Below are positions 3,060-14,029 of a stretch of 14,968 nt of DNA, in pieces. The DNA is taken from the IMG/VR virus record IMGVR_UViG_2529292834_000017; one strand, written 5' to 3'. Every line of letters starts with the position of its first letter. Within the stretch, counting starts at the first letter, position 1. The notes under the pieces are model-generated. The model worked only from the letters and a program-made list of their open reading frames with translations. It ran no database searches and was not told where the DNA came from. Source of the DNA: a virus (lineage: Duplodnaviria > Heunggongvirae > Uroviricota > Caudoviricetes). The position numbers were made by a program, and so were the translations under genes.

Positions 3060-3893
3060 ATGAACATCGAAAAAAGCAGATTAATTTCTGAGGCCGCCCC
3101 TCATCTGAACGCCTCTCTGGGCACAATTAACGGTAATGAATTTGCCGCAATTGTCCCGGTTATTTCTGGTCATATAGGCGGGCGTGAAACCAATATTGTT
3201 AGCGCAAAAGCGTTACACAAAGCGTTGGGCGTGGGAAAAGACTTCTCTACATGGATCACTGATCGCATCTCTGAATATGACTTCACCATTGGGCACGATT
3301 ACTCAGTCCATAAAACAATTTCCCCAAATTTGGGGAAAAGCCCGAATGACGCGGCTTACAGCAAGATTAAGCAGTCTGGCAGACCCGGCAAAGACTATCT
3401 GTTAAGTGTCGGAATGGCGAAAGAACTGGCAATGATCGAACGCAATGATCAGGGTCGCGCTATCCGCCGTTATTTCATCCAGTGCGAGAAAGAATTACAG
3501 CGTAGCGTGCCTGAAATCGCCGCCCGCTATCGTCGCCAGCTAAAAGCCCGTATCAGTGCCGCAAACAACTTCAAGCCAATGTGCGATGCGCTGAATATGG
3601 CCCGTGCCGAGATGGGGAAAACGACGCAGCAACACCACTACACAAACGAGAGCAATATGATTTCTCGTATCGTTCTTGGTGGGCTAACTGCTAAGCAGTG
3701 GGCGCGGATAAATGGCTATTCTGGCGAACCTCGCGACCATATGAACGCAGAACAGCTTGAGCACCTCTCATATCTCGAAAGCACCAATATCACGTTAATT
3801 GATATGGGCATGGAATATGAGCAGCGCAAAGGAGAACTCACCCGCCTGTCGCAACGCTGGCTCGCCAAGCGTCTGGAGGCGGTCCATGTTTAA
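3060..3893 (+). CDS. Phage antirepressor-like protein (AntA/AntB-type N-terminal domain)
   Basis: 277-aa ORF with SD ACGGAG upstream. N-terminal segment IVSAKALHKALGVGKDFSTWITDRISEYDFTIGHDY fits the AntA-type pattern (A..LH..LGV...FS.WI..RI..Y.F.EG.D) as I remember it. Product call is moderate; coding call is good. Confidence 0.75.
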   Translation: MNIEKSRLISEAAPHLNASLGTINGNEFAAIVPVISGHIGGRETNIVSAKALHKALGVGKDFSTWITDRISEYDFTIGHDYSVHKTISPNLGKSPNDAAYSKIKQSGRPGKDYLLSVGMAKELAMIERNDQGRAIRRYFIQCEKELQRSVPEIAARYRRQLKARISAANNFKPMCDALNMARAEMGKTTQQHHYTNESNMISRIVLGGLTAKQWARINGYSGEPRDHMNAEQLEHLSYLESTNITLIDMGMEYEQRKGELTRLSQRWLAKRLEAVHV

Positions 3894-4068
3894 GCCGACA
3901 GGAACACCACAACCTCAAAAACGCTACAAAGATGCCCACGGAGCACTCGTTACTGTCGAAAGCGTGTCTCACAACCGAGTGACGTTTTATCGCGACGGGT
4001 ATCAATCGCCATGCGTACAACCGCTGGCACGTTTCATGAAGGAGTTCGCGGAGGTTAACAAATGCTAA
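3886..4068 (+). CDS. Small hypothetical protein (60 aa), coupled to upstream gene
   Basis: ATG at 3886 overlaps the stop of the upstream gene (ATGTTTAA), the same overlap style as the other junctions in this operon. Protein [60 protein letters not shown]. The ORF track extends to 3799 but that would overlap the upstream gene by 95 nt. Confidence 0.5.
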   Translation: MFKPTGTPQPQKRYKDAHGALVTVESVSHNRVTFYRDGYQSPCVQPLARFMKEFAEVNKC

Positions 4069-5129
4069 CCGCCCAGAAGAAGATATTTTCACTGGCTGGT
4101 ATGTCGCCAAAATCCAGCAATATGACAGCAAAGTCAGACATTAATACAGCAGATACAAGCAAAGTTTATCATTTGCTGGTGGTAGGAGCGGATGCCTTAA
4201 CTATGTCAGAAATTACGGTCGATGGTGTTAGCGTTGAGAAGGTCAGCGGCTATGCCAGAGAATTTCTGGTCGTAGATGGCTTTCTCTGCTCGTGTAGTGA
4301 CTCCACAAAAACCTTCGTCCACGCGCGTGACGTTAACGAAATGAGCGCGATGTACTGTGCTTCTGGTTCTTCCAATAGTGAGTTTTCGGAGTCCATAAAA
4401 AAGAGCTTGCCGTTATGCGGCAACACGGTTTATGGTTATAAGGCACCTCATAAAACGGGTGCCGGGATTGGCGTCCTAAAAATTCTGAAGGCGACATATG
4501 ACGCGCCAAGCGTCTTTTTTTATGTCGTAGGTCTGACTCACCCATTTTTTGGGCGTTGGTGTATAATCCAGCGCCTTTGTCAATCAATGGTGGCTCAGGC
4601 GGGGGCTTCTTCGGAAGCGCCGGTATCCTTCAGAGCCGGTTACGCCAACCCTGTCTGGGCTACCACCAGCGAAATTGGCGTTTCCGGTGGTAGCGTAACC
4701 TGCTATCTGAAGGAGGCTGCCACATGCTGGCTACTACCCCTACCCAAAAAACGCAATTTATCTGGATTATCGCCGCAGTTCGCCGCGATTGCCCGACAAT
4801 TACCGCCAAAATTCATCATATTGCTGCCGAGTCTGAACGCGATGCTCGCCGTTCTCTGGTGCGCGATCACGTCTGCTTTTTTGCTGGTCGTATCCGCATG
4901 GAGGTGGCACATGATTAAAACCTACGATGTGCATATGGATCCCCTCGAACGCACAAGCCAGATCATCACACTGACAGAAGTGATTAACGACATTCTGGTG
5001 AGCAACTCTCCCTCACGAGACGAAAGACTGAAGGCGTTACTCGCGATATTGGATCTCGCCGTTCGTGACGTTCATTTCCTGCTGGAAGGTGGCGAAATGC
5101 CAGTAAAAACGGGGGCAACCAATGAATAA
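4062..5129 (+). CDS. Questionable 355-aa ORF, probably not one gene
   Basis: The first ~145 codons (4062 to ~4500) look protein-like. The ORF then reads through a hairpin+U7 terminator (4500-4521), a perfect TATAAT (4562-4567), a UUCG-tetraloop hairpin and a 9-bp hairpin, and the SD/ATG of a better ORF in another frame (4724). Its last 72 codons coincide with the separate gene 4911-5129. An annotation pipeline could still call it as one hypothetical protein. Confidence 0.3.
4381..4403 (+). promoter_or_regulatory. Copy 1 of conserved promoter-proximal motif AGTTTT-N2-GAGTCCATAAAAAA (putative early-operon promoter element)
   Basis: GAGTCCATAAAAAA at 4389-4402 is identical to 10237-10250 (14/14), with matching AGTTTT upstream in both. 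Followed by a perfect palindrome TTGCCG-N5-CGGCAA (4406-4422) and, about 100 nt downstream, a hairpin terminator. Confidence 0.35.
4500..4521 (+). terminator. Intrinsic terminator-like hairpin in the immunity leader (timm-like)
   Basis: GACGC-GCCAA-GCGTC stem-loop followed by TTTTTTT. Immediately preceded by TCTGAAGG (4484-4491), a seqA-like target complementary to 4628-4635. Confidence 0.45.
4530..4567 (+). promoter_or_regulatory. Sigma70-type promoter with perfect -10 TATAAT (4562-4567), weak -35
   Basis: TGTATAAT at 4560-4567. No good -35 hexamer at 17 bp, so activity is uncertain. Confidence 0.35.
4568..4700 (+). ncRNA. Candidate P4 CI / P1 C4-type antisense immunity RNA region (boundaries approximate)
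   Basis: Non-coding leader with a GCTTC-TTCG-GAAGC tetraloop hairpin (4605-4618) and a 9-bp perfect stem GCTACCACC/GGTGGTAGC (4659-4667 with 4686-4694). TCCTTCAGA at 4627-4635 is perfectly complementary to TCTGAAGGA at 4706-4714, which overlaps the SD (AGGAGG 4711-4716) of the Icd-like gene, and 8/8 complementary to 4484-4491. Family membership would need a covariance-model search. Confidence 0.4.
4724..4918 (+). CDS. Icd/Kil-like small protein (cell-division-inhibitor family of P1 icd / P4 kil position)
   Basis: 64-aa ORF with SD AAGGAGG (4706-4712). Motif [10 protein letters not shown]...[25 protein letters not shown] resembles Icd-like proteins as I remember them. Its stop overlaps the next ATG (ATGATTAA). 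Sits immediately downstream of the antisense-RNA-like leader, as in P1 immI and P4 immunity regions. Confidence 0.55.
   Translation: MLATTPTQKTQFIWIIAAVRRDCPTITAKIHHIAAESERDARRSLVRDHVCFFAGRIRMEVAHD
4911..5129 (+). CDS. Small hypothetical protein (72 aa), translationally coupled
   Basis: ATG at 4911 preceded by GGAGGTG; overlaps the upstream stop and the downstream start (ATGAATAA at 5122). Protein [32 protein letters not shown]... Confidence 0.5.
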   Translation: MIKTYDVHMDPLERTSQIITLTEVINDILVSNSPSRDERLKALLAILDLAVRDVHFLLEGGEMPVKTGATNE

Positions 5130-5316
5130 CTCAATTAATACCCCTCGCCTTACGTCCGCACTTCAATTAATCGAGCAAGCAGCGGCTGTCCTGGTTGCTG
5201 TCAGTCTTTCGGCTGAAGAAATGGACGCTGCTGATGTCGTGGATGCGATTAAAGCGTGCTCATCTTTGGTTAACGATGCCCGTGCAGAGCTGGTAATTCT
5301 TGGTGGTGAAAAATGA
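5122..5316 (+). CDS. Small acidic hypothetical protein (64 aa)
   Basis: SD GGGGGC upstream. Start overlaps the previous stop and the stop overlaps the next start (ATGA at 5313). Acidic, helical-looking sequence. Confidence 0.65.
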   Translation: MNNSINTPRLTSALQLIEQAAAVLVAVSLSAEEMDAADVVDAIKACSSLVNDARAELVILGGEK

Positions 5317-5576
5317 ATATCAACTTAATTTATCGTCATCCGTGTGAGCTGGAAATTGAATCATTGCTGGGGCGCGAAGAGCCATATCCAGACACATTCA
5401 CTCCCGCAGATTGCGCGACTGAACGGCTTACCAGAGCGCGCACAGGTCTGGTTCATGTGATGAATGAGATTATTCCCTCGGTGGGAGGGGAACAGGCGAC
5501 AGTAATCAATAGCTGGCTACAAAAAGTTACCTCCCTGATAGATATCAGTTTAATCGATGTGGAGAGTGCGAAATGA
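5313..5576 (+). CDS. Small hypothetical protein (87 aa)
   Basis: SD GGTGGTGA upstream; ATGA overlaps at both ends (5313 and 5573). Confidence 0.65.
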   Translation: MNINLIYRHPCELEIESLLGREEPYPDTFTPADCATERLTRARTGLVHVMNEIIPSVGGEQATVINSWLQKVTSLIDISLIDVESAK

Positions 5577-5794
5577 CCAACATCCAGCTCATTGAAGCGC
5601 AATGTCGCATCGAACAGGTTCAGACTGTTTTAGGGTTCTGGCTTGAAGGGGCCAGCCCAAGCAACAGAGACAAGTTAATGATTGGCGCGGTTATGTCACT
5701 GCTCAATGGCGTACCAGAAGCTATTCAGGAAGCGGACGAATTGTTGGGCAAATATGAGTTACAGAATCATTCAGGCGAGGCGAAACATGAATAA
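5573..5794 (+). CDS. Small hypothetical protein (73 aa)
   Basis: SD GAGAGTG upstream; the stop overlaps the next gene start (ATGAATAA at 5787). Confidence 0.65.
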   Translation: MTNIQLIEAQCRIEQVQTVLGFWLEGASPSNRDKLMIGAVMSLLNGVPEAIQEADELLGKYELQNHSGEAKHE

Positions 5795-6389
5795 TTTCTT
5801 AACTTTCCATGCAGAAGCAACGCCTGGCGGCGTAAACATCATGTACCGCAGCAACGATGGCATGACAGAACGCGTTGAGGCCGTCTCATATATTGATGCC
5901 GTAAATCGTCTGGATGCCGGGGATTATGACGATAAACCAGATGAAGGTATGTCAATACATCTCGCTATTGCCGATGGCGGCAACCAGGGATATTTCGATT
6001 ACACATCACAGCATAACGTCATTATGTGGAGATGGCTGATCGCAACAGTATTCATGCTGGAAATGAGAGAGGAAAACGGCACCGTCAGCATTATTGATGA
6101 CAGTGGCAATCATTCCGTGGTTTCTGTTTATTCCAATGGCATCGTCGCCATGCCGCTGTATCCAGTAGCAGAGCGCCTCGCTATGGCAAACAACATTGAG
6201 GGCGCAATGATCGAGAAATATGGTGTTGATGTCGGAACAAAGAATGCCATCATTTTTTACAGCAACATGTTCGATGTCGAACAGGGAACACTCACTTCGT
6301 TTGGGCGAGAAGTGCTTGCCGATCTTCACAACAGCTTTATTGCCGAACTAAACGAAAACGGCATCCCAGAAGCACCAGTGACGCACTAA
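5787..6389 (+). CDS. Hypothetical protein (200 aa from ATG 5787)
   Basis: ATG at 5787 with GAGGCG upstream, coupled to the previous gene. The ORF track start at 5682 would overlap the upstream gene in another frame. No recognisable motif. Confidence 0.65.
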   Translation: MNNFLTFHAEATPGGVNIMYRSNDGMTERVEAVSYIDAVNRLDAGDYDDKPDEGMSIHLAIADGGNQGYFDYTSQHNVIMWRWLIATVFMLEMREENGTVSIIDDSGNHSVVSVYSNGIVAMPLYPVAERLAMANNIEGAMIEKYGVDVGTKNAIIFYSNMFDVEQGTLTSFGREVLADLHNSFIAELNENGIPEAPVTH

Positions 6390-6401
6390 ACGGGGGCCAG
6401 A

Positions 6402-8753
6402 ATGCGAAACATTGATCTTATCCGTCAGGTTATCAGTGCGTCTGAAAACAACTGGCCTCATGTGCTGGACTGCCTGAACATAAATGTCCCTGACTCTCCG
6501 CGCCGTCATGCTCCCTGCCCTGCATGTGGGGGCAAAGATCGATTCCGGTTCGATGACAACGGGCGCGGTAGCTTCATCTGTAATCAGTGCGGCGCTGGTG
6601 ATGGGCTGGATTTAATTAAACGCGTAAATAACTGCGACACAACAGAGGCGGCGCTTCTTGCCGCTGATGTTCTGGGTATTGATTACCGGACAACGGAAAC
6701 ACCAGAAGCCACCAGCCAGAAACGGGAACAACTGGAAACCGAGCGCCAGCGACGCGAACAGGAGCGCCTGAAAAGGGCAGAGAAGGACGAACAACAAAGA
6801 CGGGATACGTTTTCCCGTCAGTTTGATGACATGCGCAGAAAGGCTGTAAACGGCAAATCTGATTATCTGGTTGCGAAAGGGGTAGGTGATTTTACATTCC
6901 CTGTGTTGCCCGATGGATCTCTGTTGCTGGCGCTGGTGGATAAATCCGGCGCAGTCACAGCAGCACAGACTATTACCTCACATGGTGAAAAAAGACTCCT
7001 GACAGGTTCAGCAAAGCGAGGGGCATATCACGCCATAAACGCACAGAAACGACCTCACAGCATCATAATTGCTGAGGGGGTGGCTACCGCCCTGTCGTGC
7101 CATTTAATTCGCCCTGACGCAATGACAGTGGCAGCAATCGACGCTGGCAACCTGTTGCCAGTAGCGGAAGTCATGCGCAGAACATATCCACAGGCACAAA
7201 TCATCATTGCCGCAGATAACGATCACCAGCAAGGAAACTCCGAAAGTGGAGGGATCAACACGGGGAAAGATGCCGCAGAGAGGGCCGCTATTTCCGTAGC
7301 TGGCTGGGTGTCTCTGCCACCGACTGACTATAAAGCCGACTGGAACGACTATCACCAACAACACGGGCTGGCGGCAGCCACAGCAGCATTTAAAGATTCG
7401 ATGTACCAGCCACGGGGGAAAGGGGCGCAGGTGAAAAATCACAAACAGTCAGTCGGGGCGCTGAATGAGATCAGTTCTGGCGAGGTGTTAAGCGATGATG
7501 AAATTGCTGTCCTCGAAGAAATCAACCGGACGTTTACGCATGTCACCATCGGCGGGAAACACAAGGTGGTGTCGCTAAAGCCTTCTCAAACCGGCGGTGT
7601 ATCGCACGTTTTCGAGGATTTATCACAATTTCAGCATTATTTTCATCATAAACCGAGAGTCGCCAGAAAGCTGGCGGGATCGGCGTGGCTGTCATGGAGT
7701 GGGAAGAACTACAAGCCAGGAGGCGTAGGATTTTATCCAGTACCAGACAAATGCCCTGACGATGTTTTTAATCTGTATGAGGGGCTGGCACTGGAACCAA
7801 TTGAAGGAGATTGCACGGTATACCTTAATCACCTGTTGCAGGTTGTCTGTGCCGGTAATGAAGAGGCATACCAATATCTTATCCAGTGGATGGCGCACAT
7901 TATCCAAAAGCCTGATGAAAAACCGTCCGTGGCAATCGTGATGAAATCTGTCCCGGGCACAGGGAAAGGCACAACGGTTAAACCGCTGCTGCAAATACTG
8001 GGGCAGTACGCCGCCCACATTAACGGGGCGGGACATATTTCAGGGCGCTTCAATTCAATACTTGCTAACAAGCTACTGGTATTTGCTGACGAAGTGACGA
8101 TCCACAAGCCGTCTGAAGCTGACAGACTTAAAGCGATTATTAGCGAACCGACGTTTAACCTTGAGCGCAAGGGAATTGATGCTGAACCAATGCCGAATTT
8201 TGCCCGGTTGATATTTGCCAGTAACAGCACACAGGTATTACAGGCAGGGATAAGAGAGCGCCGCTATCTCGTGCTTGAGCCATCTCCTGAAAAAGCACAG
8301 AGCCGGGAGTATTTTGATCGGCTGTACAGTTGGCTTAATGATGGCGGTGCCGCAAAGTTGCTTTGGCATCTTAAAGGGGTGGATCTCTCAGGTTTTGACC
8401 CTCAACGAGCGCCACAGACCGATGCCTTACGTGAAGAAATCTTGCTGGGGCTGTCTGGCGTTGAATTGTTTCTTTATGGCGAGCTAATCAATGAACCTCC
8501 GTTTAATGGCGAAGTCCGTTTGTTTGCAAAGGATATGGTTAGTCGATTTGTAGCGTGGTCGCTTGAGCGTGGGGAAAAGCTTAAAGAACCAGCTGCCAGA
8601 TCACTACTGGGTAAATCACTTGCACAAATGGGGCTGGTGAAGCATGGAAGACCAGACCGAGGGAATGGCGTGTTCTACGAACTACCAGAGGTCGGAGTTC
8701 TACAGGCTGCGTTTGCCCGTCTGATCGGTATGGGGGGGTATGATGTTTTTTAA
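6402..8753 (+). CDS. P4 alpha-type bifunctional DNA primase / SF3-like helicase (zinc ribbon + Toprim + D5/P4-family NTPase)
   Basis: 783-aa ORF with SD GGGGGC. N-terminal zinc ribbon CPACGGKDRFRFDDNGRGSFICNQCGAGDGLDLI (CxxC...CxxC), near-diagnostic of P4-alpha-like primases. Toprim-like IIIAEGVATAL and AADNDHQ (DxD). P-loop-like SVPGTGKGTT, Walker B-like LLVFADEV, sensor-like LIFASNS. Size matches P4 alpha (777 aa). Confidence 0.93.
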   Translation: MRNIDLIRQVISASENNWPHVLDCLNINVPDSPRRHAPCPACGGKDRFRFDDNGRGSFICNQCGAGDGLDLIKRVNNCDTTEAALLAADVLGIDYRTTETPEATSQKREQLETERQRREQERLKRAEKDEQQRRDTFSRQFDDMRRKAVNGKSDYLVAKGVGDFTFPVLPDGSLLLALVDKSGAVTAAQTITSHGEKRLLTGSAKRGAYHAINAQKRPHSIIIAEGVATALSCHLIRPDAMTVAAIDAGNLLPVAEVMRRTYPQAQIIIAADNDHQQGNSESGGINTGKDAAERAAISVAGWVSLPPTDYKADWNDYHQQHGLAAATAAFKDSMYQPRGKGAQVKNHKQSVGALNEISSGEVLSDDEIAVLEEINRTFTHVTIGGKHKVVSLKPSQTGGVSHVFEDLSQFQHYFHHKPRVARKLAGSAWLSWSGKNYKPGGVGFYPVPDKCPDDVFNLYEGLALEPIEGDCTVYLNHLLQVVCAGNEEAYQYLIQWMAHIIQKPDEKPSVAIVMKSVPGTGKGTTVKPLLQILGQYAAHINGAGHISGRFNSILANKLLVFADEVTIHKPSEADRLKAIISEPTFNLERKGIDAEPMPNFARLIFASNSTQVLQAGIRERRYLVLEPSPEKAQSREYFDRLYSWLNDGGAAKLLWHLKGVDLSGFDPQRAPQTDALREEILLGLSGVELFLYGELINEPPFNGEVRLFAKDMVSRFVAWSLERGEKLKEPAARSLLGKSLAQMGLVKHGRPDRGNGVFYELPEVGVLQAAFARLIGMGGYDVF

Positions 8754-10405: not shown

Positions 10406-10579
10406 ATGGCTATTTCAGTAAAGCCAGTATTGATAAGTGAGAAGCAAATGGAAGCGATAAAGAAAATTCAGGAGGAGCAGCGTAAAAAATCAGAGGTAGG
10501 AGTTGCGCCAACGATCCACGAAATTGCTCGGGGATTAATGGATAAGGCGCTGGCTTACACTTTAACTGGACGTGGGTAA
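10406..10579 (+). CDS. Small hypothetical protein (57 aa), first gene of the cargo operon
   Basis: Strong SD AAGGGGGG 6 nt before the ATG at 10406. Protein MAISVKPVLISEKQMEAIKKIQEEQRKKSEVGVAPTIHEIARGLMDKALAYTLTGRG, charged and helical-looking. Possible small regulator or partner protein; inference only. Confidence 0.6.
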   Translation: MAISVKPVLISEKQMEAIKKIQEEQRKKSEVGVAPTIHEIARGLMDKALAYTLTGRG

Positions 10580-10583
10580 ATTT

Positions 10584-11927
10584 ATGGCTACGTGGCAACA
10601 GGGTATTAATTCTGGTGGTTTTCTGGCTGGCATCGGTGCGCAAAATGAGAATGCGCCAAAGGCAAGCGACATTAACGCAACGCTTGGTCTGATCCGCGAA
10701 AACAATGAACTGGCTCGCTCAGGTGCAAATAACGTTGCTCTGACAGGTCTTCGTGGTCTGGCTGGAGTTGCTGACATTTATAAGCAGCAGCAACAGCAGG
10801 AACGTAAAGCGGCATTCCAGAAAGGTTATGCAGATGCTTATGCGTCCGGTGACAGGGAGCAGATGCGTAATCTTATTACAGCATTCCCAGAAGAGTTTGA
10901 GGAAGTCCGTAAAGGGATGAGTTATGTCGATGATGCTCAAAGGGATGATTATGGCAATCTGGCGCTCAAAGCACAGGTAGCCTCATCGCTTGGTCAGGGC
11001 GCATTTGGCAGGTTCATGATGGATAATGAGCAGGAGATGCGTCGTTTAGGTATCCCTCCAGAAACTATTGCTGAAATGCAGGTTAATGACCCGCAGGGCT
11101 TCCAGCATTTCGCAGGTAATCTGGCGCTGTTTTCTCTCGGTCATGAGAAGTATTTCGATATCAAAGATCAAATGGAAGGTCGTCGACTTGAGCAAGGGCG
11201 ACTGGATGAAAGTATGCGTCAGGCTGACATGGAGAACGCGAGAGGATGGGCAAATATCCAGAACGCTCAACTAGACAGGGCTCAGCGAGCACAAATTCAC
11301 TCAGATGAGATGGGATTGAAGCTAATGGAGCTGGGGCAAAAAGGTAAGCCGTCAGCAGACTTAATTAAGGGATTAAATTCTGACATTACCAATTTTGGCA
11401 AAAATTATAACTCTGTCAGAGCGGCGGCAAACTCTCTGCAAGCCCTTAGCAAGGTAAATACTGGCGCTGCCCAACTTGGGATTATCTTCAACTACATGAA
11501 ATCTCTTGACCCGCAGTCAGTCGTTCGTGAAGGCGAACAGGTTCAGGTAATGCGGTCTGATGGCATATGGGGACAAATCAAAGGATACATAGACCAGCTT
11601 AATGCTGGAAACGGCCTGTCGCAGGAGGCAAAGGATAACATTGTTAACGCCGCAAAAATCAACGCCAATGCTATGGGGCAGCAGTTTAACCAGCAGGTTG
11701 ACGAGTATCTCGATACATATGGAGAAACTATTCCTCAGGGGCTAAGAAAAAGCCTTGAAAGAAGGAAAGCGAAGCTATTTGACGATGTTTCCGGGCAGCC
11801 TACATCACAGGCTGGCACTGGACAGGCAAAAGCGGCAACCGGAGGAATATCAGAAGGCGCAACGGCAACCAACCCTAAAACTGGTCAGAAAATCATTTAC
11901 AGGAACGGAAAATGGCAGCAAATGTAA
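10584..11927 (+). CDS. Hypothetical coiled-coil-rich protein (~448 aa; 451 aa if GTG 10572 is used) with Gly-rich N-terminus
   Basis: Long ORF with coding-like composition. N-terminal Gly/Ala/Asn-rich segment (GINSGGFLAGIGAQNENAPK), then a Q/E/R-rich probable coiled coil (QADMENARGWANIQNAQLDRAQRAQIH). No Walker, nuclease or other catalytic motif seen. Start ambiguous between GTG 10572 (overlapping the upstream stop) and ATG 10584. Confidence 0.8.
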   Translation: MATWQQGINSGGFLAGIGAQNENAPKASDINATLGLIRENNELARSGANNVALTGLRGLAGVADIYKQQQQQERKAAFQKGYADAYASGDREQMRNLITAFPEEFEEVRKGMSYVDDAQRDDYGNLALKAQVASSLGQGAFGRFMMDNEQEMRRLGIPPETIAEMQVNDPQGFQHFAGNLALFSLGHEKYFDIKDQMEGRRLEQGRLDESMRQADMENARGWANIQNAQLDRAQRAQIHSDEMGLKLMELGQKGKPSADLIKGLNSDITNFGKNYNSVRAAANSLQALSKVNTGAAQLGIIFNYMKSLDPQSVVREGEQVQVMRSDGIWGQIKGYIDQLNAGNGLSQEAKDNIVNAAKINANAMGQQFNQQVDEYLDTYGETIPQGLRKSLERRKAKLFDDVSGQPTSQAGTGQAKAATGGISEGATATNPKTGQKIIYRNGKWQQM

Positions 11928-14029
11928 TCTTACCGGAAGGTTTTGTGCTCGATGAACAACCTGATAACTCACAGTTTCCTGATAGTTCACAGCTTCCTGA
12001 TGGTTTTGTGCTTGATGCCCAACCAGAACAGCAGCAATCACCTTTGGTTTCACCAGAGGAAAATTCCAGACAGGAAAATGTTGTTAATAATGCTAACGGT
12101 TTCGACCGTTTTATGTATGGCGTTCTCAGTGGATTGATGGATGTTGGTAAAGGTGTTGGCCTGTTTCAGGATATGACACCAGAAGAGCAAGCCGCAATTC
12201 AGTCTCTACAGCAGAAGTTAGCGGCAAAACCATCAACCGCACAAGATGTTGGTGAGTTCGTTGGACAAGCAGCGCCATTTGTTAGTGGTGGTGGGATTAT
12301 TTCTCAGGTTCCCAAAGGGGCGGCAAGACTGGCTGCCGCCGCAGGGCTTGGTGCTGGAGAAGGGGCTATTGTAGCCAATGGAACAAATAGCGATGTTGCT
12401 TCCGGCGCTGCTATTGGCGCTGTGGCTGGCCCTGTAGCCGAACTTGCTGGCCCTGCAATTAATAAAATAGCTGGGAAATTAACCAAGAAGAATGTTTCTT
12501 CGATTCCAGATATTGAGGGGATTACTCCTGCCGAAGAGAAAATTCGTAAGTTATCTGCACAAGGCAACCCAAATCTTGCCTCTTCGCTTGAAGGGCTAGA
12601 TCTAAAACCTCAGAAAGAAATTGTTGAGGCTGCAAATAGGCTTCATGTTGATTCAGTTCTTCCTTCTCATTTATCAGGAAATGAGCAATACCAAGCTGTA
12701 GAGCAAGCCCTAAAGTCACGGACAGGATCAGCGTTAAAAGCTCAAGAAGATAAAGCAATAAGCGAATTAGCCTCTAGTGCTGGCAAGATAATCGATGATG
12801 TTGCTGGTGCGCCAGATGCGTTAGCTATGAGCGAAAAATATATTTATCAGATAAATAGTAGAATGGAAGCACTAAAAAACCGTAGTGATCAGTTATATAA
12901 ACGTGTTGATTCCGCTCTATCACCAAGAACAAAAGTCGAAGCAAATAACACAAGCACTATGCTGGAAAAAATCGCTGATGATTTAGGAGGGTGGGATAAT
13001 CTTGACCCAATAGAAAAGCGAGTTTTTACAGCAATAAACCCCGGCCCAGATAGCATCCTAACGTATGCAAATTTAAACAGGCAAAGGCGTTTAGTTGGTG
13101 ATGCCCTAAATAAAAAGCAGGGGCCATACAAAGATGCTGATAAAGAAGCGCTATCAAGACTATATGGAGCTTTAGCTGAAGACCAAAAATCTGTCTTATC
13201 CAATACTGGATACTTGCGAGATTTCGAAGTCGCACAACGCCTTGTAGCTATGAGAAAAAACTTAGAAAGGCAAATGGTAAATCTTCGCGGGAAAACACTT
13301 AATGGGGATATAGCGTATAAAGTAACGAATTCTCTTCAATCTATGGCAAAAGGTGATGCGAGAGGGTTTCGTGAGATTATGCAAAATACTCCATCAAGAA
13401 CATTGCGAAGGGAGCTAGTAGGAACAGCATTAAGAGATATGCTTTCCTCTGGGAAGCGTGGGGCCGACTTTAATCCATCTGGCTTCGCAGATTGGTGGCA
13501 AAACTTGCAACACAGTGGACAGCTAAAGACTTTGGCTGAACATTTGCCAAAAGAAACAATGAGCGGACTATATGATGTATACAAAGTTGCCAGAGCAATA
13601 AAAAATGCTAAAGCGCATGAAATATCTACTGGTAAGCTGAATGAGTTTGTAAACAGATTTAATCGGGTAACAGCTCCATACGAACTAGCAGCAAAACACA
13701 TTCAAAAAATAGGCACGATGGTAGGCGCTCATTTTGGATCGCTTGGAGCCATTGCTGGGGCTGATATTGGAGCAAGATTGGCGAGTAAAGCTCGATTAGC
13801 TGGTGGAGCAGGGGCGGCTGATGCTGCGGATAAATTAATTGCCTCGCCAGCCTTCCAGAGCGCAGTAAAAAATCTACACGGAAAAGCGCCTGGGCACATT
13901 GTTGATTCACGTATCAGGCGCTCCCCTCAATGGAAGAGTTTTTTTAACTCTCTTCCTGAACAGGAAAAACGGACCATCGCCAGACTGGGCATCATTACTT
14001 GGCTATCTAATGATCCAGATAATGACTAG
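11912..14029 (+). CDS. Hypothetical 705-aa protein with N-terminal tandem repeat and Gly/Ala-rich amphipathic segments
   Basis: ATG at 11912 with AGGAA 6 nt upstream; overlaps the end of the upstream gene by 16 nt. N-terminus has a tandem repeat LPEGFVLDEQP / LPDGFVLDAQP. Gly/Ala-rich stretches at residues ~125-180 (AARLAAAAGLGAGEGAIVANG...AIGAVAGPVAELAGPAINKIAGKL) and near the C-terminus (GSLGAIAGADIGARLASKARLAGGAGAADAADKLIASPA). No enzymatic motif recognised. GC content drops sharply after ~12500. Confidence 0.85.
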   Translation: MAANVILPEGFVLDEQPDNSQFPDSSQLPDGFVLDAQPEQQQSPLVSPEENSRQENVVNNANGFDRFMYGVLSGLMDVGKGVGLFQDMTPEEQAAIQSLQQKLAAKPSTAQDVGEFVGQAAPFVSGGGIISQVPKGAARLAAAAGLGAGEGAIVANGTNSDVASGAAIGAVAGPVAELAGPAINKIAGKLTKKNVSSIPDIEGITPAEEKIRKLSAQGNPNLASSLEGLDLKPQKEIVEAANRLHVDSVLPSHLSGNEQYQAVEQALKSRTGSALKAQEDKAISELASSAGKIIDDVAGAPDALAMSEKYIYQINSRMEALKNRSDQLYKRVDSALSPRTKVEANNTSTMLEKIADDLGGWDNLDPIEKRVFTAINPGPDSILTYANLNRQRRLVGDALNKKQGPYKDADKEALSRLYGALAEDQKSVLSNTGYLRDFEVAQRLVAMRKNLERQMVNLRGKTLNGDIAYKVTNSLQSMAKGDARGFREIMQNTPSRTLRRELVGTALRDMLSSGKRGADFNPSGFADWWQNLQHSGQLKTLAEHLPKETMSGLYDVYKVARAIKNAKAHEISTGKLNEFVNRFNRVTAPYELAAKHIQKIGTMVGAHFGSLGAIAGADIGARLASKARLAGGAGAADAADKLIASPAFQSAVKNLHGKAPGHIVDSRIRRSPQWKSFFNSLPEQEKRTIARLGIITWLSNDPDND

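Follow-up and report, generated by a model that had tools for sequence, protein, structure and literature searches.

A probable standard copy of the P4/P1 small-RNA immunity switch in an Escherichia coli satellite-phage island

The window analysed here, meaning the whole stretch of 14,968 nt, is part of an E. coli satellite-phage island. Its integrase and primase ORFs are intact, and of 5426 complete E. coli genomes, 421 carry the full segment. A tRNA was looked for at the island border and none was there. The features of interest (Table 1) are a leader with two regulatory RNAs, an Icd/Kil-like gene, and then ORFs that overlap or are tightly packed from 4724 to 8753, of which the small ones between icd and the primase have no family matches. 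The 355-aa ORF overlaps the stop of a DUF4222 gene (4068) at one end and, at the other, the beginning of the ORF that follows (5122), and it begins upstream of the predicted constitutive promoter internal to it; the same arrangement, abutting the upstream gene and spanning the cassette, is repeated in loci L124 to L127. In RefSeq the stretch is labelled 'ash family protein', no RNA gene is annotated, and the overlapping CDS is marked as a pseudogene in the identical FORC_031 copy.

Table 1 Features of the immunity cassette and its surroundings (positions in the window).
Feature	Position	Strand	Description
AntA gene	3060-3893		5' of the cassette
Eta-like read-through ORF, 355 aa	4062..5129	+	Annotated 'ash family protein'; spans the whole cassette
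PLE-like constitutive promoter (predicted)	4407..4436	+	-35 TTGCCG 4407-4412, 18-nt spacer, -10 TATGGT 4431-4436
IsrK/P4-seqA-like leader RNA	4443..4520	+	Two 5' hairpins, single-stranded linker, intrinsic terminator; carries both upstream target boxes
Upstream junction-box target TTGGCGT	4468..4474	+	In the loop of isrK hairpin 2; complementary to 4642-4648
Upstream loop-box target TCTGAAGG	4484..4491	+	seqA-type; complementary to 4627-4634
Intrinsic terminator of the short IsrK-like RNA	4500..4520	+	GACGC-GCCAA-GCGTC then T7; from terminator scan; nearly identical in P4
Perfect TATAAT	4562..4567	+	19 nt 5' of the C4 AUGG start
C4/P4-CI-type antisense RNA	4583..4670	+	17-bp closing stem, UUCG-tetraloop hairpin, hairpin with 12-nt specificity loop, single-stranded junction, ACCACCA 3' tail
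Loop box TCCTTCAGA	4626..4634	+	Specificity determinant, seqB/b'-type
Junction box ACGCCAA	4642..4648	+	Second specificity determinant, a'-type; in the C4 junction
9-bp hairpin	4659..4694	+	4659-4667 pairs with 4686-4694; loop holds the downstream TTGGCGT box
Downstream junction-box target TTGGCGT	4675-4681	+	Complementary to 4642-4648
Downstream loop-box target TCTGAAGGA	4706..4714	+	Overlaps the GGAGG Shine-Dalgarno sequence of icd; seqC/b2-type
Icd/Kil-like gene, 64 aa (putative)	4724..4918	+	First translated gene after the cassette
Primase-helicase (Zn-ribbon, Toprim, DUF5906)	6402..8753	+	Distal gene of an operon predicted to be gated by the cassette

A preliminary description of this DNA had placed a P4/P1-type antisense-RNA immunity leader upstream of an Icd/Kil-like gene and had proposed a covariance-model search with the Rfam C4 family as a check. 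This search was positive: the C4 antisense RNA model (RF01695), a family that includes P4 CI and P1/P7 C4, matched 4583-4670 over its full length (model positions 1-87) with 79.9 bits against a gathering threshold of 45. The isrK model (RF01394) matched 4443-4520 with 60.5 bits (gathering threshold 50), and P4 seqA scored 60.8 bits on the same model. The experimentally defined seqA/CI region of P4 yields the same two Rfam matches at the same spacing, and the order and spacing of parts in the P4 immunity region (PLE, seqA, CI RNA, seqC, kil/eta) are those of the window, with a mean column identity of 77% between the aligned sequences. The immunity leader was thus supported, and the individual parts that had been listed, namely the seqA-like element, the terminator, the TATAAT, the UUCG hairpin and the 9-bp hairpin, all exist in the region. 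In P4-like prophages, IsrK and C4 correspond to seqA and CI (PMC3632133). The Rfam model of P1-type upstream targets (c4-a1b1, RF03163) gave no match at E <= 1 on 4300-5000; on this model P4 itself reached 44.1 bits, under the threshold of 46.7.

The PLE-like promoter aligns with the TTGCCT...TATAGT of P4 just 5' of seqA, and both of its hexamers are kept in 12 of 12 clade members around a spacer that varies. Transcription of the leader would start at about 4443. A second promoter may lie at the perfect TATAAT, which would serve as an extra source of C4; despite divergence of the spacer, it is kept in seven of nine near relatives as well as in L124 and L125, and it is missing in P4, L126 and L127. 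Its function is uncertain because a good -35 element is lacking. A sigma-70 scan with its own criteria reported neither the PLE-like promoter nor the TATAAT, so both promoter calls rest on conservation and on the alignment with P4. Hairpin 1 of the isrK match shows compensatory changes within the clade.

The C4 fold has a minimum free energy (MFE) of -46.4 kcal/mol (z = -4.8), and compensatory changes were found at 13 of its 22 pairs among 62 sequences. Its first inner hairpin is the UUCG-tetraloop hairpin at 4605-4618, and it carries an acceptor-like stem and the ACCACCA tail (4662-4668). The CI and C4 RNAs are processed by RNase P (PMC5499578). The C4 closing stem has a competitor in the 9-bp hairpin, which shows compensatory changes in comparison with P4 and with L016 and L066 and whose role would be to display the downstream TTGGCGT box in its loop.

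The preliminary description had noted a 9-nt element exactly complementary to the Shine-Dalgarno region of the Icd-like gene (4706-4714) and to the element before the terminator (4484-4491). Both complementarities hold; the element itself lies at 4626-4634 and not at 4627-4635. Its downstream target ends 9 nt short of the ATG at 4724, and in UCUGAAGGAGG the box continues into the icd Shine-Dalgarno sequence, with the ATG 9 nt past the box. The octamer TCTGAAGG or its complement occurs only three times in the window, against 0.41 occurrences expected, and always within this 230-nt stretch, and the match between loop box and targets exceeds chance. A second complementary box had been missed: ACGCCAA at 4642-4648 matches TTGGCGT at 4468-4474 and at 4675-4681.

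Both boxes co-vary with their targets among 61 loop types from viral contigs, P4, and syntenic E. coli and Klebsiella islands. For the 61 distinct loops from viral contigs, the complement found in the locus's own downstream flank averages 7.74 nt versus 4.85 nt in non-cognate flanks, and that in its own upstream flank 6.80 versus 4.88. In the cross-locus control on 3660 non-cognate pairs, a loop complement of at least 9 nt turned up in the downstream flank of 8 pairs and one of at least 8 nt in the upstream flank of 28. The offset of the downstream target is fixed, at +45 to +59, and in 49 of the 50 loci of the family the co-varying target stops 2-13 nt 5' of an ATG. Upstream, all clade members show covariation of the loop-box target with the loop. 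For the junction box, four variants occur in P4 and the syntenic islands; each finds its match at both target sites, and the upstream target stays at a fixed position. Duplex energies are -24.2 kcal/mol for cognate and -13.7 kcal/mol for non-cognate pairs.

The same parts occur in the isrK-orf45(STnc1160)-anrP region of the Salmonella prophage Gifsy-1, where a C4-like processed RNA, overlapped by a translated ORF, comes after an IsrK-type RNA and its terminator (PMC4825925). STnc1160 is processed there from the isrK read-through transcript, and the demonstrated role is activation by the short IsrK in trans; binding to Hfq and activation of the read-through mRNA in trans were shown for Gifsy-1 alone (PMC4825925). 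The window might hold an activator circuit of this type and not an immunity repressor, with a read-through leader that is silent until a short IsrK-like RNA opens it in trans and turns the downstream genes on. The isrK match and the strong terminator do predict a short RNA holding both target boxes. In the MFE structure of the leader, 4706-4713 pairs with 4627-4634, so that the loop box occupies the Shine-Dalgarno region in cis like the silent 'structure A' of Gifsy-1 (PMC4825925), and the competition between the 9-bp hairpin and the C4 closing stem suggests alternative conformers. The setting, however, is that of P4: a Kil/Icd-like first gene and then a primase operon, in place of the antirepressor and Q of a lambdoid phage, and the cassette sequence is nearest to P4. 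We consider the activator circuit unlikely, while noting that it has all its parts in common with a repressor, that the two are not mutually exclusive, and that IsrK could simply titrate C4.

The ORF behind the cassette encodes, as had been proposed, a putative Icd-like cell division inhibitor homologous to P4 Kil, an assignment supported by a match to the NCBIfam model phage_ICD_like (NF033153; 71.6 bits, cutoff 25) and by 42% identity to P4 Kil (E = 7e-10). It carries a coding signature, with a pN/pS of 0.28 and 41 of its 64 third positions variable. The immI region of P1 and P7 (C4 RNA, icd, ant1/2) resembles the window in having an RNA of the same Rfam family, boxes of the a'/b' type with targets on both sides, a downstream target that covers the icd ribosome-binding site, and an Icd-like first gene. 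It differs in its upstream target, which in the window is of the isrK/seqA type and does not match c4-a1b1, and in its ant gene, since none is coupled downstream of icd in the window. The suggestion of a rearranged immI-like trio is therefore weak: an AntA gene does lie nearby, but not in the P1-style order c4-icd-ant. It lies upstream of the cassette, so coupling of C4 to icd cannot control it, and it is part of the variable 'Bro zone' of such islands.

The annotated product of the stretch raises a different possibility, that a genuine 355-aa protein of the Ash family is encoded here, whose conserved domain explains the conservation and makes the RNA-model matches secondary. The ORF is open from 4062 to 5129, Pfam Phage_ASH (PF10554) matches aa 124-232, or nt 4431-4757, with 117.2 bits against a gathering threshold of 26, and 'ash family protein' entries number in the hundreds in the protein database. 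However, the Pfam match falls on the two RNA genes. We applied Nei-Gojobori pN/pS in three frames, counts of variable sites per codon position and a simulation of stop placement. Over 4431-4723 the Ash frame gave a pN/pS of 0.88, against 0.28 in the adjoining icd, with 39, 42 and 37 variable sites at the three codon positions; in syntenic loci pN/pS in this frame was 0.84-1.03. Without amino-acid constraint or a third-position bias, the ORF was rejected as a constrained protein. Across the family, loop lengths of 8, 9, 10, 11, 12 and 15 nt occur and stops interrupt the Ash frame at 35 of 61 loci, and the 'ash family' members in the database range from 206 to 538 aa, many of them 'partial' or fused to unrelated upstream genes. 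In favour of the protein, open forward frames are enriched (35 of 61 loci against about 13 expected); a mononucleotide-shuffle null for frame openness was judged inadequate, because a conserved core sequence is common to the loci, and was replaced by a frame-resolved analysis. Overall, a genuine Ash protein is very improbable.

The family name can be traced to a P4 ORF of the 1980s labelled 'put. ash gene / cI gene product'. Immunity was later credited to the CI RNA; Forti et al. 1995 reportedly made this assignment. "Ash protein" annotations appear largely to translate RNA genes.

What keeps the frame open is only partly explained. Over the cassette it contains no stop in nine relatives selected by pattern, and under random placement of the observed substitutions the chance of remaining stop-free was 0.08-0.41 per lineage, for six lineages that are not independent. 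Part of this stop-avoidance signal could stem from the constraint that RNA structure puts on the sites able to change. In P4, ribosomes translate ORF eta through seqA-CI-seqC, and this belongs to the eta/kil mechanism (PMC10111431), so that translation of the 355-aa ORF across the region, which the preliminary description would have taken as a refutation, does not speak against an immunity leader. Since the Ash frame lacks amino-acid constraint yet is free of stops, as fits P4 eta, which overrides immunity when translated from an upstream promoter, the ORF is best read as eta-like and would do the same. The P4 ORF map shows a 214-aa ORF, of 197 codons when counted from M18, and a kil of 65 aa in the same frame. 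In the window the frames differ (position mod 3 is 2 for icd and 0 for the 355-aa ORF), owing to a 2-nt difference from P4 between the Shine-Dalgarno sequence and the gene; icd is not nested in-frame, and the 'nested genes' arrangement of P4 is thus not reproduced. More broadly, the Ash ORF, and with it much of Phage_ASH and the 'ash family protein' entries, might not be a protein domain at all but a frame kept open solely to let ribosomes from an upstream operon pass through the IsrK/C4 cassette and cancel immunity. Such a sequence-independent device of translation as anti-immunity would be generalised from P4 eta to PICI islands, and would here be uncoupled from kil/icd by the frame shift and joined by a TATAAT promoter dedicated to C4. 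We put this forward tentatively, at somewhat below even odds.

The comparison with P4 extends beyond the RNAs. The two share a nearly identical terminator and conserved promoter hexamers, their antisense logic uses two boxes with targets upstream and downstream, a Kil homolog comes first, a long ORF spanning the cassette abuts the upstream gene, and a primase operon follows. Among the differences, the interval from terminator to CI is 42 nt longer in P4, which is also without the TATAAT found before C4 in the window. The eta-like ORF of the window is out of frame with icd/kil, extends to 5129, and comes after AntA and DUF4222 instead of directly after an AlpA homolog; no psu, delta or sid genes were identified in the window. 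Both specificity boxes differ from those of P4, and hetero-immunity is therefore predicted. Gifsy-1 differs in being a lambdoid prophage whose downstream gene encodes an antirepressor and not icd with a primase operon. The Gram-negative PICIs with their 'Bro zone' share int, alpA, Bro-network genes (AntA, Phage_ASH), primase/DUF5906 and captured late genes, and have C4 and isrK matches inside the Phage_ASH ORF (PMC10111431). We found no substantive difference from these islands, of which the window appears to be one. That study treats Phage_ASH as a protein domain (PMC10111431), whereas our tests detected no coding constraint in it.

The pseudogene label in RefSeq would also suit an inactive relic in a decaying island, with inherited complementarities that are no longer used. 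Against this, every part of the cassette is intact, as are the integrase and primase ORFs, and the full segment recurs in the genomes counted above. Moreover, sister islands with the same backbone carry different specificity boxes that are internally matched, which requires continuing selection on pairing. We give the relic hardly any credence. Homology, RNA structure, covariation of two boxes, overlap of a target with the Shine-Dalgarno sequence, and a coding signature present in icd and absent from the Ash frame were each observed for the cassette. Taken together, we assign a probability of about 0.85 to the reading that 4407-4918 is a P4-type immunity cassette in an integrated satellite (PICI/P4-like) island.

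From the homologies to P4, P1 and Gifsy-1 we infer how the promoters are used, how the RNA is processed and repression exerted, and what the eta-like ORF does. The constitutive PLE-like promoter would start the leader RNA, and the terminator would halt most transcripts to give a short IsrK/seqA-like RNA. Read-through transcripts would carry the C4/CI-like RNA, with the TATAAT at 4562 as a possible extra source, and processing, which in P4 and P1 is by RNase P, would yield a stable RNA of about 80 nt. Its exposed boxes, CCUUCAGA in the hairpin loop and ACGCCAA in the junction, would pair downstream with UUGGCGU (4675-4681) and UCUGAAGGA (4706-4714), and upstream, in the IsrK leader, with 4468-4474 and 4484-4491. 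The downstream pairing would mask the Shine-Dalgarno sequence of the Icd/Kil-like gene and block its translation, and the operon ending in the primase would then be silenced by polarity or premature termination. With the operon silent, the island would be quiescent and immune to any further copy of its own specificity type. On transcripts from the upstream promoter of an AlpA-AntA-DUF4222 operon, ribosomes would translate the Ash ORF across the cassette, melting the RNA structures and overriding immunity, whatever the sequence of the peptide.

The cassette belongs to a known type, as IsrK/C4 cassettes in P4-like prophages and Gram-negative PICIs have already been published (PMC3632133, PMC10111431); it is a real but ordinary copy of the switch and raises no new question. 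Its main value lies in annotation, in that the functional units of the stretch are two known regulatory RNAs and a putative Icd/Kil-like toxin gene. The cassette behaves as a swappable module with more than 60 specificity types, in which two boxes co-evolve with four target sites, and the dataset of specificity types could help to predict cross-immunity between satellites and prophages.

The preliminary description read 4381-4918 as a P4/P1-type antisense-RNA immunity leader before an Icd/Kil-like gene and proposed a covariance-model search, which returned the Rfam C4 family (RF01695) at 4583-4670 with 79.9 bits (gathering threshold 45). Rfam isrK (RF01394; gathering threshold 50) matched 4443-4520 with 60.5 bits. 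The C4-like RNA had a predicted folding energy of -46.4 kcal/mol (z = -4.8), and compensatory changes were found at 13 of the 22 pairs of this fold among 62 sequences. The P4 immunity region matched the same two models in the same geometry (C4, 74.9 bits; isrK, 60.8 bits), and its alignment with the window ran through the promoter, seqA, the terminator, CI, seqC, the SD and the first gene. In the window this gene is a 64-aa ORF (4724-4918) that is Icd-like (NCBIfam, 71.6 bits) and 42% identical to P4 Kil. IsrK and C4 have been equated with seqA and CI of P4-like prophages (PMC3632133), and the IsrK paper describes IsrK as a structural homolog of P4 SeqA, with a processed RNA, STnc1160, downstream of IsrK (PMC4825925). 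Every testable feature of the C4 family, the isrK family and the Icd-like proteins was found at this locus, supporting the proposed reading; earlier publications already describe cassettes of this type from P4-like prophages and GN-PICIs. PHROGs (families 1743 and 6928) labels the Icd/Kil-like protein 'transcriptional repressor', the phrog_6928 alignment covering positions 138-194 of 202. The same label persists for the P4 'cI gene product' ORF in RefSeq NC_001609, and the PHROGs label looks like a mis-annotation propagated from that old ORF. P1-like phages and many Stx-converting phages (records including RCS47, JL22 and D6) matched the query in its isrK part alone (4431-4526), mostly beneath CDSs annotated as antirepressor or Rha, and the isrK-like leader may circulate apart from the C4 type of the window.

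The segment 4381-4918 is 100% identical to a chromosomal island of E. coli FORC_031 that adjoins yicC/rph, and it was found in full in 421 of 5426 complete E. coli genomes. The gene layout matches that of Gram-negative PICI and P4-like satellites (PMC10111431). The AntA gene had been counted as part of an immI-like trio, a view that was not upheld: unlike P1 immI, the locus has no ant gene downstream of icd. The P22-type ejection genes are unusual cargo beside a P4-type immunity and primase module in a satellite-like island. One carries an Inj_translocase domain (246.8 bits), the other encodes a 705-aa DNA-transfer-like protein (phrog_6704), and both may belong to the 'captured late genes' known from PICIs.

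Gene order in the window
Feature	Position	Strand
Integrase	1-1269	+
AlpA-type HTH	2398-2616	+
Hypothetical gene	between AlpA-type HTH and AntA genes	+
AntA antirepressor	3060-3893	+
DUF4222	3886-4068	+
355-aa ORF	4062-5129	+
Several small ORFs	between 355-aa ORF and primase	+
Primase, Zn-ribbon/Toprim/DUF5906	6402-8753	+
P22-type ejection proteins	10572-14029	+

All the elements originally listed at 4381-4918 are present, the sole error being the placement of TCCTTCAGA at 4627-4635; this loop box of the C4 hairpin lies one base earlier, at 4626-4634. Three copies of TCTGAAGG, counting its complement, were found across the 14,968 nt of the window where 0.41 would be expected, and each of them falls inside 4484-4713. 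A second complementary box had been overlooked: ACGCCAA, in the single-stranded junction of the C4-like RNA (4642-4648), complements TTGGCGT at 4468-4474 and at 4675-4681. Since this junction box also has a target on each side, the predicted pairing is bipartite both upstream and downstream, resembling the a'/b' layout of P1 C4. Pairing of 4659-4667 with 4686-4694 forms the 9-bp hairpin, which rivals the C4 closing stem and carries the downstream TTGGCGT as part of its loop; compensatory changes in this hairpin are seen relative to P4 and to two related loci, L016 and L066. TATAAT (4562-4567) is kept in most near relatives and missing from P4 and two syntenic islands, L126 and L127.

Support for functional pairing came from viral contigs, in which a scan with the conserved C4 core, the loop left free, yielded 120 loci and 62 different loops. 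In a set of 61 representatives, the longest perfect loop complement averaged 7.74 nt in a locus's own downstream flank versus 4.85 nt in those of other loci, and 6.80 versus 4.88 nt upstream. The downstream target lay at an offset of +45 to +59 in nearly all loci, mostly ran into GGAG, and was followed 2-13 nt later by ATG in 49 of the 50 loci with a match of at least 7 nt. Loop, upstream and downstream boxes co-changed in every lineage of the window's clade. Four forms of the junction box (ACGCCAA, CUGCGAA, GUCCUAA and UUCUCAC) were seen in P4 and four syntenic islands, each with the matching complement at two target positions that stayed constant. Predicted duplex energies for cognate versus non-cognate pairs were -24.2 versus -13.7 kcal/mol at the downstream target and -21.6 versus -12.8 kcal/mol at the isrK target. 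In L016, L066 and three syntenic islands (L124, L126 and L127), the isrK/seqA target of the loop box (4484-4491 in the window) carries a G where the downstream copy has an A, turning an A-U pair into G-U (e.g., GUUGUCGG versus GUUAUCGG); in those lineages the upstream site is therefore systematically weaker than the downstream one.

Pfam Phage_ASH matches residues 124-232 of the 355-aa ORF, corresponding to the isrK-C4-target stretch (4431-4757). The RefSeq label of the ORF is 'ash family protein', with the identical copy in FORC_031 marked as a pseudogene; the name was traced to early records of P4 that list a 'put. ash gene (aa 1-137)' and a 'cI gene product'. As a mosaic module, the cassette aligns gap-free with its relatives over ~4431-4918 at 70-95% identity, between unrelated flanks. 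A coding signature is clear in the icd frame (pN/pS 0.28; variable third positions 41/64 versus 14 and 15 elsewhere). No such signature was found in the Ash frame over 4431-4723, either by pN/pS (0.88) or by variable sites per codon position (39/42/37). The RNA parts of syntenic loci gave pN/pS of 0.84-1.03, these loci having come from a protein search, so that their open frames are ascertained. Nine pattern-selected relatives had 0 stops in the Ash frame and 26 and 48 in the other two; with the observed substitutions placed at random, the chance of zero stops was 0.08-0.41 per lineage. The C4 closing stem has at its 5' base an AUG (4587-4589; -22 from the CTTCGG core) that is conserved (Rfam consensus AuGG) and is in frame with Ash/eta in the window, P4 and many further loci; by position it may match the start of translated Gifsy-1 orf45. 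Some 'ash family' ORFs in the protein database (P0006, P0010 and P0045) are in-frame fusions with AntA (PF08346) or PF03354 domains, so the open frame merges with whichever gene is upstream.

P4 has an ORF of the same kind (214 aa; 197 codons from the third clustered Met), which adjoins the AlpA-like ORF88 and has Kil in frame at its end. In P4, a constitutive promoter lies within eta, CI/seqA interactions bring transcript termination, and Kil is a truncated Eta (PMC10111431). From this ORF and the P4 mechanism we infer, by analogy, that the 355-aa ORF is eta-like. In the window, unlike P4, the gene is not nested in frame with it, because a 2-nt difference from P4 between SD and gene puts icd out of frame.

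In the mechanism we propose, the PLE-like promoter (4407-4436), whose hexamers are conserved in the clade, would make a short IsrK/seqA-like RNA, and read-through would yield the C4/CI-like RNA. At the icd/kil-like gene the two boxes of C4 would mask the SD, silencing the operon ending in primase; translation of the eta-like ORF on upstream transcripts would override the silencing. Translation across this region had been held to speak against an RNA leader, an objection that does not stand where it forms part of the mechanism. The leader MFE structure pairs 4627-4634 with 4706-4713 in cis, resembling the silent Gifsy-1 conformer, and for this reason we keep in view a model in which short IsrK may serve as activator or sponge. 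At the PLE-like promoter, a perfect inverted repeat (TTGCCG-TTATG-CGGCAA, 4407-4423), also scored as a minus-strand terminator, overlaps the -35. It occurs in the window and L033 types only, is absent from other clade members, and could be an operator or chance.

More widely, 'Ash family protein' annotations appear to translate an RNA cassette, its frame apparently kept open for read-through, without protein-level constraint.
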